Of a stretch of DNA of 64,000 bases, positions 10,307 through 64,000 are shown piece after piece (within the stretch, counting starts at the first letter, position 1; each line of letters begins with the position of its first letter). The DNA comes from an uncultured Phycisphaerales bacterium (GTDB lineage Bacteria > Planctomycetota > Phycisphaerae > Tepidisphaerales > Tepidisphaeraceae): NCBI GenBank assembly GCA_963771925.1, contig CAVYVE010000003.1:30053-94052 (forward strand). The letters are read 5' to 3'. The notes under the pieces are model-generated. The model saw only the letters and a list, made by a program, of their open reading frames with translations. It was not told where the DNA came from and searched no databases. The position numbers and the translations under genes are program-made.

Positions 10307-11772
10307 ATGAATCGGCTTTCTTTCGATATCGACGCGGTGATCGAGGGCAAGAGCCGGCTCAGCGAGGCCCAGGCGCTGGAGATTTATCAGTAACGCTTCC
10401 ATGCAGGATTTGGGCTCCTGGGCGCTGGCGGCGACGCAGCGGATGCATCCCGAGGATTACCGCACTTACGTCATCGACCGGAACATCAACTACACGAATG
10501 TCTGCACGGCCAAGTGCACGTTCTGCGCTTTTCGGCGCGATCATGAGGATTCCGACGCGTACACGCTTTCGTACGAGCAGATCGGGCAGAAGATCTCGCG
10601 AACTGGTGTGCCATCGGCGGAACGCAAATCCTCATGCAGGGCGGGATGAACGACCGACTGCCGATCGAGTATTACGAGGACCTGCTGCGTTACATCAAAA
10701 GCAATTTTCCCACGATCCATATCCACGCTTTTTCGCCGCCGGAGTTCGTGGAGTTCGAGCGGTTCTTTCAAATGGACGTTCGCGACATCATCCGCCGATT
10801 GCACAAGGCGGGCCTGGACACGATCCCCGGCGGCGGAGGGGAAATCTTCGCGCCGCGCGTTCGGCGGCGGATCGGCATCGGAAAATGCACCGGCGACGAT
10901 TGGCTTCGGGTCATGCGCGTTGCGCATGAGGAGGGGATGAACACGAGTTGCACCATGCTCATCGGGCATATCGAATTCGTTCGGGAGCGGATCGAGCACA
11001 TGGCGGCGCTGCGCGATATGCAGGATTATGCGAGGGCATTGCCTATTGCCAATTGCCTATTGCCTATTGGGAAGGGCCGCAATGACGTCATTCGGCGATG
11101 TCCAGGCCCGATGGCCGGGCGTATTTGCAAAATCCGTCGCCGATTGTTCCTCAATAGGCAATAGGCAATTGGCAATTGGCAATTATACGGCCTTCATCCA
11201 CTGGCCGTTCCAGCGTGAGAACACTCCGCTGGGCCGGGCGCAGGAATGGGACCCGGACGTGCACGGCCGATTTCGATGATTCGACCAACGAGGACATTCT
11301 GCGCGGGCGGGTGGTTCGCATGGCCGGGGCGCAGGAATATCTGCGCATGCTGGGGATCGCCCGGCTGTTTTTTGACAACATCGCGTCGTTGCAAAGCAGT
11401 TGGGTGACGATGGGCCCGAAGATCGGGCAACTCGCCATGTTTTTCGGGGCCAACGACATGGGCAGCGTCATGATGGAGGAAAACGTCGTCAGCGCGGCGG
11501 GGACGACGTATCGGCTCAGCGAGCGGGAGATTTGCCGGCTCATCCGCGACGCGGGATGGGTTCCGGCCCAGCGCGATCAGTATTACAACGTGCTTCGCCG
11601 GCACGATGGAGCGGATTCGCCCGATTTGGTTCCGCTCCAGAATCCGCCGGTGAGGAATGTGAATAAAATCGATAAGAAGTTCATCGGGACGGCGCCGGGG
11701 ATGGAGGATGGGAACGATCGAAACCTGAAAATGCAGTTGCCAATTTTGGGGGGCGAGAGACCCGCTGAATGA
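10307..11772 (+). pseudogene. radical SAM menaquinone (futalosine pathway) enzyme, MqnC/MqnE family, frame-broken and interrupted by a palindromic element
   Basis: Motifs present: DRNINYTNVCTAKCTFCAF (CxxxCxxC), ILMQGGMNDRLPIEYY, HIHAFSPPE, DTIPGGGGEIF, TAFIHWPFQRENTPL, SWVTMGPKIGQLAMFFGANDMGSVMMEENVVSAAG. The pieces lie in fragments 10013-10393 (tail), 10401-10649, 10634-11164, 11028-11279 and 11176-11772, so there are at least 4 frame changes. Confidence 0.8.
11038..11184. mobile_element. MITE-like palindromic insertion (about 32-bp imperfect terminal inverted repeats around an 82-bp core)
   Basis: The left arm ATTGCCTATTGCCAATTGCCTATTGCCTATTG (11038-11069) pairs with 11152-11183 as 25 bp, one mismatch, then 6 bp. 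The core contains the perfect palindrome AATGACGTCATT (11081-11092). The element sits where MqnC/E homologues have only a few residues between LRxxQD and TAFIPW. Confidence 0.5.
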
Positions 11773-13719: not shown

Positions 13720-13776
13720 GCTGCGTGTGATAGCGGGGAACAACGGCGTTGGCAAATGGGCGCATTTTTCTACCGA

Positions 13777-13865
13777 GCCGGGGCGTGACTTCGGCGAGCT
13801 CAGTCGAGCCGTCGCCCCGGACCGGACCGACGGCTCGACTGAGCTCGCCGAAGTCACGGCCCGGC
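13777..13865. repeat. long intergenic hairpin (31-bp perfect stem, 13-nt loop)
   Basis: 13784-13814 pairs perfectly with 13828-13858, and the stem extends to 13777/13865 with one mismatch. It lies between the UxaC-like stop (13886) and the TetR start (13719), and TTCGTTTTC follows on the plus strand. Confidence 0.7.
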
Positions 13866-13885
13866 TTCGTTTTCAGGCTCCGTTT

Positions 13886-55739: not shown

Positions 55740-55877
55740 GTTTTCATCTCCGCAGGGCTATACAAAATACCGTCACGGACGGAATAAATCGCCTGAACCC
55801 CATCCGCTGTGGCAAAGACTCGCTGTCTGATTTGGTTTGAGGATTCCAACAGGTTCAAAGGGCGTTATGATTGGGGC

Positions 55878-56606
55878 ATGATCCGCTCGTTTTTTGCATT
55901 TCTAGTCGCACTGGCGCTGCCGGCGATCGCATTGGCCGATGGACCGACCACGCGGCCGGTGAAAGTAGCGGTGACACCCTTCGAGGTTCTCGGCAGCTCG
56001 GAGCAGCAGTGGATGGGCCAGGCTTTGCAGGAGGGGCTGGCGATGGGAATTCAGAAGGCTGGGGCGATTTCGGCGATCATCGTGCCGGGACTCTCGCCGG
56101 CCGATGCGACGGCCGCAATTGCCGCGGCCAAGCCCGTGGATGCCGATGCCGTGCTCTTCGGAGTGATTCAGGTTTTGGACGATCAGATTCGGATCGGCGG
56201 CCAGATCGTTTCGGTGAAAACCGGGCAGACCATCGGCGTTCTGCAATGCGACGGCACGGTGCGCGGATTGTTCGATACCGAAGACATCCTCAGCGCCCGT
56301 GCCGGGCGGATTCTGACGCCCGCGAATCGGACGGCGCCTGCGAGGACGGCTGGGCCGGTGACGTTTGAGATTGTCGGGCCGACGGTGGCGACGCGCGGCC
56401 CGCGCTATTTTGACGGCGACATATCGGCGGTGATCGCACGGCCCGAACGGTTCCGCGACGACTACGACCGCTACTATTATCATTCCGCGGACACGGCGGG
56501 ATGGGGATCGATATGTGGAGCGCCGTTTTCATGCGGCGGCCCGTTCGTATGCGGGGGCGGCAATCCGGCCCTGTTTCCCGTGGCCGCGCCGGTCAGCGGG
56601 TGGTGA
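55878..56606 (+). CDS. hypothetical secreted protein
   Basis: It starts at ATG 55878 with the signal peptide MIRSFFAFLVALALPAIALA. No family was recognised. Confidence 0.55.
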   Translation: MIRSFFAFLVALALPAIALADGPTTRPVKVAVTPFEVLGSSEQQWMGQALQEGLAMGIQKAGAISAIIVPGLSPADATAAIAAAKPVDADAVLFGVIQVLDDQIRIGGQIVSVKTGQTIGVLQCDGTVRGLFDTEDILSARAGRILTPANRTAPARTAGPVTFEIVGPTVATRGPRYFDGDISAVIARPERFRDDYDRYYYHSADTAGWGSICGAPFSCGGPFVCGGGNPALFPVAAPVSGW

Positions 56607-56616
56607 AAGCAAAATA

Positions 56617-56711
56617 CAACCACGAAGACACGAAGAGCACGAAGACAGACACGAAGAAATTAATTGTATTTCTTCGTGTCTGTCTTCGTGCTCTTCGTGT
56701 CTTCGTGGTTG
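56617..56711. repeat. perfect 44-bp hairpin (7-nt loop) built from CACGAAGA octamer repeats, copy 1
   Basis: 56617-56660 is the exact reverse complement of 56668-56711. It starts 11 nt after the stop at 56606 and ends 34 nt before pyrE. Confidence 0.9.
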
Positions 56712-56744
56712 CATTTCCTTCTCAACGCCCCGATTATTCCCGGC

Positions 56745-57269
56745 ATGACGCGACAGCAGCTTGCCGAGCGGATTGCGCAAGTTTCTCTCTTACGCGGCGA
56801 ATTCACTCTCCGAAGCGGACGAAAGAGCAATTATTATCTGGATAAATATCGGTTCGAGACTCAGCCGGATGTCCTGGCGGAACTGGGGAAATTATTCGCT
56901 CGGATGGTAACGGAGAAGGTAAACCGCATCGCCGGGGCGGAATTGGGGGCGGTGCCGCTGGCGGCGGCGACCGCGATGGCGTGCGGTAAACCGTTCGTCA
57001 TCGTGCGGAATCAAAAGAAGGACTACGGAACCAGCAAGCAGATCGAAGGTGTCCTGAACGCGGGTGAGACGGTTCTCATCGTCGAAGACGTGTTGACCAC
57101 CGGGGGGCAGGTGATCGAGGCGGCCAAGACTTTGAAGGATGCGGGCGCGAAAATCGATCGCATCGCGGCGGTCATCGACCGCCAGGAAGGGGCCAGAGAG
57201 AATATCGAATCGGCTGGTTACGCGTTCGAGGCCCTGTTCACCGCCGCGGATTTGGGGATCGGCAAATAG
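56745..57269 (+). CDS. pyrE: orotate phosphoribosyltransferase
   Basis: 174-aa ORF from MTRQQLAERI. Motifs present: GEFTLRSGRKSNYYLD and the PRPP loop VLIVEDVLTTGGQ. Confidence 0.9.
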   Translation: MTRQQLAERIAQVSLLRGEFTLRSGRKSNYYLDKYRFETQPDVLAELGKLFARMVTEKVNRIAGAELGAVPLAAATAMACGKPFVIVRNQKKDYGTSKQIEGVLNAGETVLIVEDVLTTGGQVIEAAKTLKDAGAKIDRIAAVIDRQEGARENIESAGYAFEALFTAADLGIGK

Positions 57270-58147: not shown

Positions 58148-58909
58148 CTAACTCTCCACGCCGGTGCGCCCCGGCTTGTCCGTTTCCTCCGCGACTTCGC
58201 CCATCGCCTCATCCATTTCACCCGCGCCGTATATGCCCAGTTCTTCCAAAGCCAACAGCGCGGCTTTCTGTTCGGCCATCTTTTTGTTCGGGCCCCAGGC
58301 GCTGCTGAATCGGCGGCTCTCGATCACCACGCAAATCTCAAAACATTTGCTGTGGTCGGGACCCTTCTCATCCAGCAGTTCGTAAATCGGCGCAGCGCCC
58401 AACGCCTTCTGCGCGTACTGCTGCAAAACCGCCTTGAAATTCTGCTGATGGGTATTGGATGCGATCAATTCGATCTTGGGGGACATCGTGCGCAGAACGT
58501 ACTGCTTCACAACGTCGAATCCGCCATCGAGATAAATGGCGGCCACGATGGACTCATAGACCGCGGCGGCGAGTGAGCTGGGCATTTCCTCGCGGCTGCT
58601 GATGCCTTTGCCGATGATCAGCAGATCGATCAGGCCGGTCTCGTTGGAGACCTCCGCGCAGGTTCGCCGCGAGACAACGGCGGATTTGATCTTGGTGAGA
58701 TCGCCCTCCAGATATTCGGGAAATCGCTTGTAAAGGGCTTCGCAAACGATCAGATCGAGCACGGCGTCGCCGAGGAATTCCATGCGCTCGTTGCTCTTGA
58801 GCCGATGGTCGGCCACCGAGGCATGTGTGAGCGCCTCTTTCAGCAGGTCGGGGTTCTGGAACGTGTACGATATGATTTTCTCGGCACGTTCGCGGTCTTC
58901 AGTGTTCAC
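58148..58909 (-). CDS. rnc: ribonuclease III
   Basis: GTG start at 58909. The signature NERMEFLGDAVLDL is followed by a C-terminal dsRNA-binding domain (GPDHSKCFEICVVI...AEQKAALLALEEL). Confidence 0.9.
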   Translation of the reverse strand: MNTEDRERAEKIISYTFQNPDLLKEALTHASVADHRLKSNERMEFLGDAVLDLIVCEALYKRFPEYLEGDLTKIKSAVVSRRTCAEVSNETGLIDLLIIGKGISSREEMPSSLAAAVYESIVAAIYLDGGFDVVKQYVLRTMSPKIELIASNTHQQNFKAVLQQYAQKALGAAPIYELLDEKGPDHSKCFEICVVIESRRFSSAWGPNKKMAEQKAALLALEELGIYGAGEMDEAMGEVAEETDKPGRTGVES

Positions 58910-63620: not shown

Positions 63621-63755
63621 ATGCATTACCCGCACAAGACGAGCAACATCAAGCGAGCCCGCAACATCGGATTCCGTGCCCGAATGCGCACGAAAAAGGG
63701 CCGGCAGATGATCAACCGCAAGCGCCGCGCCGGCCGGCGCGTGCAGGTGGTATGA
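63621..63755 (+). CDS. rpmH: 50S ribosomal protein L34
   Basis: 44-aa product MHYPHKTSNIKRARNIGFRARMRTKKGRQMINRKRRAGRRVQVV, a typical L34. Confidence 0.9.
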   Translation: MHYPHKTSNIKRARNIGFRARMRTKKGRQMINRKRRAGRRVQVV

Positions 63756-63783: not shown

Positions 63784-63887
63784 AATACAACCACGAAGAC
63801 ACGAAGATCACGAAGACAGACACGAAGAAATGTATTTGCCTTTCTTCGTGTCTGTCTTCGTGATCTTCGTGTCTTCGTGGTTGTATT
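63784..63887. repeat. perfect 47-bp hairpin (10-nt loop), copy 2 of the CACGAAGA-repeat element
   Basis: 63784-63830 is the exact reverse complement of 63841-63887. The arms differ from copy 1 at one position (G to T), with the matching C to A change in the other arm. Confidence 0.9.
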
Positions 63888-63934: not shown

Positions 63935-64000
63935 ATGAGAGCCGGGACGCTCCTTCTGCTCGGCATGTCGATTTGGGCCTGGTCGATTCCCCCCGCCCGT
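63935..64000 (+). CDS. start of an unidentified secreted or membrane protein (3' end outside the window)
   Basis: ATG 63935 gives MRAGTLLLLGMSIWAWSIPPAR, which looks like a signal peptide. Only 22 codons are visible. Confidence 0.3.
   Translation, partial: MRAGTLLLLGMSIWAWSIPPAR

Follow-up and report, generated by a model that had tools for sequence, protein, structure and literature searches.

Two long perfect hairpins in the window

The window analysed here is a stretch of 64,000 nt (G000:C3:30053-94052) from the genome G000, a Phycisphaerae-like MAG assembled into 4.39 Mb on 5 contigs with 60% G+C. Tepidisphaeraceae source names on the close relatives of its proteins are consistent with a planctomycete host of the Phycisphaerae. 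Within the window lie two giant inverted repeats, copy 1 between an ORF and a pyrE-like gene and copy 2 immediately beyond rpmH (Table 1). The initial annotation had described them as exact inverted repeats of 44 and 47 bp, each arm with four repeat units and the two copies separated by one compensated difference, and both the coordinates and the sequences of the arms bear this out. Copy 1 has a 7-nt loop and copy 2 a 10-nt loop, and in both copies each arm is made of four CACGAAGA units preceded by an AACC head. The 16-mer CACGAAGACACGAAGA occurs 4 times in the window, where 0.02 occurrences are expected. The single arm difference reads GAGCAC/GTGCTC in copy 1 and GATCAC/GTGATC in copy 2, leaving the base pair intact.

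Table 1. Coordinates of the two hairpins and the neighbouring genes in the window.
Feature	Position	Strand
Copy 1, 5' arm (AACC head and four CACGAAGA units)	56617..56660	.	
Copy 1, loop TAATTGT (loop subfamily TTAATTGCA)	56661..56667	.	
Copy 1, 3' arm, exact reverse complement of the 5' arm	56668..56711	.	
Copy 1 with semi-conserved A/T-rich outer extension (63-nt arms, 89% complementary)	56598..56730	.	
Copy 2, 5' arm	63784..63830	.	
Copy 2, loop TGTATTTGCC, also found in the copy at G000:C1:867185 and, reversed, in that at C5:201408	63831..63840	.	
Copy 2, 3' arm, 100% complementary to the 5' arm	63841..63887	.	
ORF without Pfam match, stop 10 nt before copy 1	55809..56606	+	
Phosphoribosyltransferase (pyrE-like) gene, beginning 33 nt past copy 1	56745..57269	+	
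rpmH (ribosomal protein L34), stop 28 nt before copy 2	63621..63755	+	
Next plus-strand gene (start only, 47 nt past copy 2, extending beyond the window)	63935..64000	+	
rnc (RNase III), 1.4 kb from copy 1; genomic context only	58148..58909	-	

Folded as RNA, copy 1 is predicted to reach -84.9 kcal/mol (z -19) and copy 2 -87.4 kcal/mol (z -17), while the values predicted for DNA folding are -58.5 and -59 kcal/mol, respectively. Several statements about the setting of the hairpins also hold. Each copy does sit just after a plus-strand stop (10 and 28 nt) and ahead of the next plus-strand gene, and neither is followed by a T-run. The stems had been judged far beyond those of ordinary terminators; they are 3-5 times longer, a terminator scan called neither copy a canonical terminator, and both lack the combination of a short GC-rich stem and a T-run that defines intrinsic terminators. 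The minus-strand rnc gene is indeed 1.4 kb away, although this closeness is probably a coincidence, since the other 20 copies of the element are scattered over four contigs.

The hairpins belong to a dispersed intergenic family

The initial annotation had suggested counting the element across the genome. This search returned 22 paired hairpins in G000, one further element with 440 bp between its two arms, and also a few solo arms, or about 24 copies. The arms, with the consensus AAATGCAACCACGAAGACACGAAGATCACGAAGACAGACACGAAGAAA, are 95-100% identical between copies that occupy distinct loci with unique flanks, and at unrelated sites this level of identity extends to the loops. Most loops measure 7-20 nt and a few reach 110 nt; they fall into a small number of subfamilies, so that the orientation of a copy can be read. 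Our home-made and crude codon-usage gene caller, applied to an apparently frameshift-rich assembly, places every one of the 22 copies in intergenic space (15 between tandem, 5 between convergent and 2 between divergent genes). For many of them a stop codon is only 0-10 nt away and the hairpin takes up nearly the whole spacer, and 20 of the 22 are downstream of at least one gene. When a uniform rule was applied, G000 was found to contain 53 CRCNRAR-class hairpins, including 24 of CACGAAG, 19 of CGCAGAG and 8 of CGCGGAG type, none of them within a called gene. An Rfam search with the element gave sub-threshold matches to miRNA hairpins only and no family. These properties, together with presence/absence differences at orthologous sites (see below), support the proposal that the hairpins are REP- or MITE-like elements.

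Other hairpin families are present in the same genome. One giant and near-perfect palindrome, at window positions 13776-13866 (G000:C3:43828-43918), has 45-nt arms and a 1-nt loop (AGCCGGGGCGTGACTTCGGCGAGCTCAGTCGAGCCGTCGCCCCGG) and represents a family with at least 4 G000 copies, found also at C1:691904, C1:767743 and C2:117000. A hairpin at window positions 11038-11183 (G000:C3:41090-41235) has arms of tandem TTGCC[TA]A units, and further tandem-unit families in G000 are built from TTGGTCA/TTTGTCA heptamers, GGTTAGT heptamers or CAGATG-type arms. At G000:C2:133521-133941, infA (translation initiation factor IF-1) lies between inverted TTGGTCA/TTTGTCA heptamer arrays, indicating that inverted arrays can bracket a housekeeping gene when both of its adjacent spacers are occupied. 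Separately, the segment G000:C5:1006140-1006915 contains T tracts longer than 200 nt and, at a distance of about 330-540 nt, A tracts that match them, which is probably an assembly oddity.

Pairing of the stem is maintained by compensated changes

The initial annotation had also proposed that covariation be checked across copies. We aligned 25 copies from G000 and the genomes G005, G006 and G012 over a 48-pair stem. In this alignment 92.1% of cells are paired, compared with 36-50% in slid controls. Changes on both sides of the stem occur at 18 of the 48 pairs (56 cells), a level reached in 0 of 500 shuffles, so the compensated change first noticed between the two window copies generalises to the family. 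The position that distinguishes GAGCAC from GATCAC is U-A in 15 copies, G-C in 5 and A-U in 1. Between congeners the second base of all four units switches in concert from A-U to G-C (CACGAAGA in G000, CGCGAAGA in G005). Among the imperfect core cells 26 are G-U and 43 are unpaired, roughly the neutral expectation, and this ratio therefore gives no pointer to RNA over DNA as the level at which pairing is kept up.

Turnover at orthologous sites in congeners

Twelve G000 hairpin sites were compared with five congeners, the comparisons being between species rather than strains. At the pyrE site (copy 1), the G005 hairpin is likewise perfect and has the same architecture, with CGCGAAGA as every unit of both arms; a degenerate copy is found in G006, a remnant in G009 and none in G012, G007, G003 or G001. 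The rpmH site (copy 2) holds a decayed copy with a different loop in G009, an occupancy equally compatible with transposition and with old vertical inheritance combined with homogenisation. Empty sites were found for E3 in G007 and for E10 in both G009 and G006, and E5 is nearly empty in G007, with only a remnant of the right end. Other sites in the congeners are occupied by CGCGAAGA-type hairpins or by unrelated sequences, namely CAGATG-type palindromes, TTGTCAT heptamer hairpins or a CCCCTCGCCCC-type element. The flanks of G000 and G009 are about 84-94% identical, compared with 95-100% among the G000 copies themselves, indicating that the family has recently spread or been homogenised.

Insertions at these sites can be nested or of another kind altogether. 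At G000:C5:1089709-1089905 and at L061 of G006, a hairpin of one family sits in the loop of another, and hairpin loops seem to be preferred landing sites. The long loops show no similarity to the nuclease gene described below that would mark them as its remnants; one of them contains a nested hairpin of another family. In G009, the closest congener, the loci L066, L057 and L076, which are orthologous to G000:C1:705961, C1:592870 and C2:733402, carry two-gene insertions of 500-650 bp in place of hairpins, and these are toxin-antitoxin-like (e.g. HigB/HigA-like). Short spacers after stop codons are thus hot spots for many hairpin elements, and because the same intergenic spots attract unrelated palindromes and toxin-antitoxin-like pairs, properties of the site may drive occupancy.

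Comparison of filled and empty sites gave no clean target-site duplication. The best pair, G005 versus G012, reads GAAAT versus GAATT, and the others are too diverged; written out, its junctions are AGGCGAAAT/CGCTC versus AGGCGAAAT-element-GAATT/CGCTC, with no exact duplication of the target visible. No movement of a hairpin copy was seen in these interspecies comparisons.

One member of the family encloses a GxxExxY nuclease gene

The element with distant arms, at G000:C1:705956-706475, has the same arms as the hairpins around a 440-bp loop, and the ORF in this loop matches PF13366 (PDDEXK_3) with 95.9 bits and TIGR04256 (GxxExxY protein) with 100.6 bits. Its E...D...ExK site is intact. Towards its 3' end the ORF contains a single 1-nt frameshift, which a run of three A at that point would repair; in this apparently frameshift-rich assembly the shift could be an error of sequencing. 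The CACGAAGA arms of the hairpins are thus also those of a gene-bearing copy in the same genome, although no known transposase is encoded there. G000 has two more PF13366 genes, located between inverted arrays of their own, each of three octamers and of CGCAGAGG and CGCGGAGA type, respectively, and hairpins that have the arms of the CGCAGAGG-armed gene but enclose no gene are dispersed over the genome.

An AlphaFold model of the nuclease built from 42 sequences has a pLDDT of 93.9. Four residues do not vary in the alignment, namely D69, E79, K81 and, within the GxxExxY motif, E29, and they make up a complete PD-(D/E)XK site. A Foldseek search with the model gave only weak PD-(D/E)XK matches, with TM values of 0.4-0.5 (Cas4 SSO0001, lambda exonuclease, AddAB and tRNA-splicing endonucleases), and a sequence search of solved structures gave no match.

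Nuclease genes and iterated arms are associated across phyla

To assess how general this arrangement is, we examined PF13366 loci in other genomes. Of 41 genomes from the same bacterial family, 36 encode PF13366 proteins, with 1-7 genes each, and 29 of 30 loci, from 30 genera, lie between inverted arrays that score 32-81, while control windows shifted by 700-900 nt score 13-26. The wider sample comprised 80 loci, one genome per species, from more than 12 phyla including archaea (Acidobacteriota, Pseudomonadota, Planctomycetota, Chloroflexota, Verrucomicrobiota, Cyanobacteria, Omnitrophota, Gemmatimonadota, Myxococcota and Actinomycetota among them, plus two archaeal groups), and was retrieved with two peptide patterns from the query, so that it represents the nearer relatives within PF13366. 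Flanking inverted repeats reach a score of 32 or more at 52 of these 80 loci, compared with 3 of 80 in the reverse-only control.

The arms have a common design in which (T)(C/A)ACC precedes 3-4 units, for example CACAGAG, CACGGAG, CGCAGAG, CGCAAAG or CACGAAG, and the ACC head is found in about 44 of the 52 arm-positive loci. The same ACC-headed design was found in Kouleothrix, in Anaerolineae and in the AT-rich Bacteroides finegoldii and Bernardetia. With their AACC head and four CACGAAGA units, the window arms conform to it, having an ACC head and at least three tandem CRCNRAG-type units. When three units were strictly required, the purine-type array lay upstream of the gene and its complement downstream at 31 loci, versus 3 with the reverse polarity. 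The GxxExxY family itself has thousands of members, with proteins 55-80% identical across bacterial phyla and some archaea; none was found among 50,697 phage records, and plasmid matches numbered only 6.

The unit type tracks the nuclease tree better than it tracks host phylum. On a quick maximum-likelihood tree of 48 nuclease proteins, unit type requires 13 changes, where 200 shuffles gave 25.9 on average and never fewer than 21, and host phylum requires 22 changes against a shuffled mean of 27.7. One clade (SH-aLRT 99) that spans four phyla contains all five CACGAAG-armed genes and the only CATGAAG-armed gene. Taken together, these observations indicate that gene and arms are co-inherited and cross phylum boundaries together. 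Such co-inheritance is no demonstration that the protein reads the units, and a contrast test of protein residues against unit type had only 1-4 independent pairs and was underpowered. Our literature searches found no publication describing GxxExxY genes with iterated-unit arms ('GxxExxY' is mentioned in passing) and no relevant occurrence of the arm sequences.

Comparison with known repeat and nuclease systems

The arrangement resembles the REP/REPIN-RAYT system in that dispersed intergenic palindromes exist in tens of copies, a single enzyme gene is bracketed by the same repeats, and the repeat is lineage-specific in sequence and varies in abundance between relatives. REPs are defined as imperfect palindromes of 20-40 nt with a GTAG or CGTC tag (PMC3733652), whereas the arms described here are 44-47 nt long, consist of tandem octamers and have no such tag. 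The enzymes also differ, the RAYT being a Y1 HUH transposase and the gene here a PD-(D/E)XK GxxExxY nuclease. A direct link to RAYTs was rejected, as none of the 8 PF01797 matches in G000 is near a CACGAAGA arm. Three RAYT-like Y1 ORFs of this genome (G000:C2:350292-350963, C5:1441631-1442252 and C5:78878-79514) do lie between inverted repeats, which are TTTAGCC-type and other palindromes, two of the three being GTTTAGCC-type and REP-like, and G000 thus has classical REPtron-like units beside the GxxExxY type.

A second parallel is provided by the Ssn GIY-YIG nucleases, whose genes are flanked by hairpin-forming NTS/SRM repeats that the enzyme cuts, with repeats on both sides in 42% of homologs (PMC11893778). 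In both systems a small single-domain nuclease gene has hairpin repeats on both sides and many further copies in the genome, and the repeat varies with the nuclease lineage. The domain is GIY-YIG (cd10448) there and PF13366 PD-(D/E)XK here, the long arms with iterated octamers are particular to the present system, and cleavage of the repeat, shown for Ssn, is inferred for GxxExxY. Like MITEs, the hairpins share terminal inverted repeats between one gene-bearing copy and many short gene-less ones, differ in presence at orthologous sites and form nested insertions; unlike MITEs, they come with no recognised transposase and no clean target-site duplication, and the whole short element is a near-perfect hairpin.

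There is also a likeness to intrinsic terminators and to RNase III-processed stems such as those of 23S rRNA intervening sequences, which are stem-loops after genes or around a small ORF; the present stems are long enough for RNase III, but exceed those of intrinsic terminators by the factor given above. A link to 23S intervening sequences was discarded, since G000 has no PF05635 gene and no long inverted repeat in its 23S region, and 0 of 118 GxxExxY loci lie beside rRNA. Conserved 23S and 16S motifs are on separate contigs (G000:C2:~473400-473800 and C5:~240600-241600), so the rRNA genes of this genome appear to be unlinked.

Origin and possible function of the hairpins

The most likely interpretation of the window hairpins is that they are repeated DNA rather than dedicated terminators. 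More specifically, they are probably gene-less, REPIN- or MITE-like copies of the arms of a GxxExxY cassette, the hairpin relating to the nuclease cassette as a MITE would to its insertion sequence or a REPIN to its REPtron. Copies would then multiply or become homogenised at the DNA level. The cognate nuclease would recognise the octamer arrays, which it would probably meet in the form of folded single strands or cruciforms, and would cut near the conserved ACC/GGT ends. We regard such recognition and cleavage by the nuclease, suggested by analogy to RAYT/REP and Ssn/NTS, as a tentative proposal about which doubt is in order, and the same doubt, if anything slightly stronger, attaches to the idea that the element is mobilised by its own nuclease. 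A transcribed copy would form a dsRNA stem of 44-47 bp that RNase III could cut, and transcripts may be blocked or ended there, in both cases as a side effect.

Several observations count against this interpretation and against mobilisation of the element by its own nuclease. Among them are the lack of any observed movement or clean target-site duplication and the occupation of the rpmH site in both G000 and G009, as described above. Only one of the roughly 24 CACGAAGA copies has the gene, and that gene is frameshifted. G005 has dozens of CGCGAAGA hairpins and no PF13366 match, and G018 has hairpins with no gene found, both genomes being fragmented short-read assemblies. The protein resident in the hairpin is about 50% identical to each of the three proteins it was compared with, one of which is CACGAAG-armed; a closer relationship to the CACGAAG-armed protein was therefore rejected.

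A quite different possibility, already raised in the initial annotation, is that the hairpins act mainly as RNA. Long dsRNA stems in 3' UTRs or in the spacers between cistrons would then serve to terminate, insulate or stabilise transcripts and would be substrates for processing by RNase III. The location of 20 of 22 copies downstream of a gene, many abutting its stop codon, is in keeping with this, as are predicted RNA stems of -85 to -90 kcal/mol on either strand, the preservation of the stem by compensated changes, a T-rich tail in about half of the copies and an rnc gene in a genome whose predicted 44-47 bp dsRNA stems would have the structure of RNase III substrates. Loop orientation agrees with transcription in 8 of 10 informative copies, which is not significant. 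This explanation nevertheless leaves unaccounted for the 3-4 identical octamers in each arm, the joint switch of all eight units between congeners and the cross-phylum tie to a nuclease gene. The gene pair around two of the copies is divergent, many orthologous sites are empty or filled with unrelated palindromes, so that no host function is conserved there, G-U is not enriched among the imperfect pairs (26 versus 43 unpaired), the window copies were not called as terminators and proximity to rnc holds for one copy only. We therefore consider a primary role as RNA unlikely. Alternatively, the palindromes could be passive, made and homogenised by replication slippage, template switching and gene conversion at intergenic sites prone to hairpins and involving no dedicated enzyme, with the nuclease gene simply tending to land in hairpins of this kind. 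The many unrelated hairpin families at the same spots, some of them nested, would fit such an origin, as would the decayed copy at the rpmH site of G009 and the genomes that have hairpins and lack the gene. It is hard to reconcile with the ACC head and CRCNRAG arms that accompany the gene across phyla, even in AT-rich Bacteroidota, with a unit type that tracks the protein tree, the arms thus travelling with the gene, or with 95-100% identity, loops included, between copies at unrelated sites, and we rate it as distinctly improbable. Finally, the initial annotation had named an element absent from the rest of the genome, and hairpins assembled from fold-back chimeric reads, as the findings that would overturn its reading. 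What we found are some 22 near-identical copies at distinct loci with unique flanks, and related copies at orthologous and other sites of independently assembled genomes, which leaves an assembly artefact with a negligible probability.

Returning to the reading of the hairpins as copies of cassette arms, a wider form of it would place GxxExxY genes and their iterated-octamer hairpins beside RAYT/REPIN and Ssn/NTS, as an equivalent system with a PD-(D/E)XK enzyme. A given nuclease lineage would be specific for a unit of its own (CACGAAG, CGCGAAG, CACAGAG, CACGGAG or others) in folded DNA, cutting at the ACC/GGT ends would give rise to gene-less hairpins by the dozen in a genome, or homogenise or mobilise them, and the concerted unit switches between congeners would reflect changes of specificity. 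In this full form we offer the proposal as a speculative one, with the odds against it.

Implications

For annotation, these hairpins should be labelled as repeat elements and not as terminators. If the link between arms and nuclease is true, it would account for a large proportion of the long perfect palindromes at which short-read assemblies of Planctomycetota and other phyla break, and nucleases of this kind could serve as sequence- or structure-specific tools, like Ssn. Most directly, such a link would give a widespread family of small nucleases of unknown function a candidate substrate, namely its own octamer arrays and the hairpins built from them.
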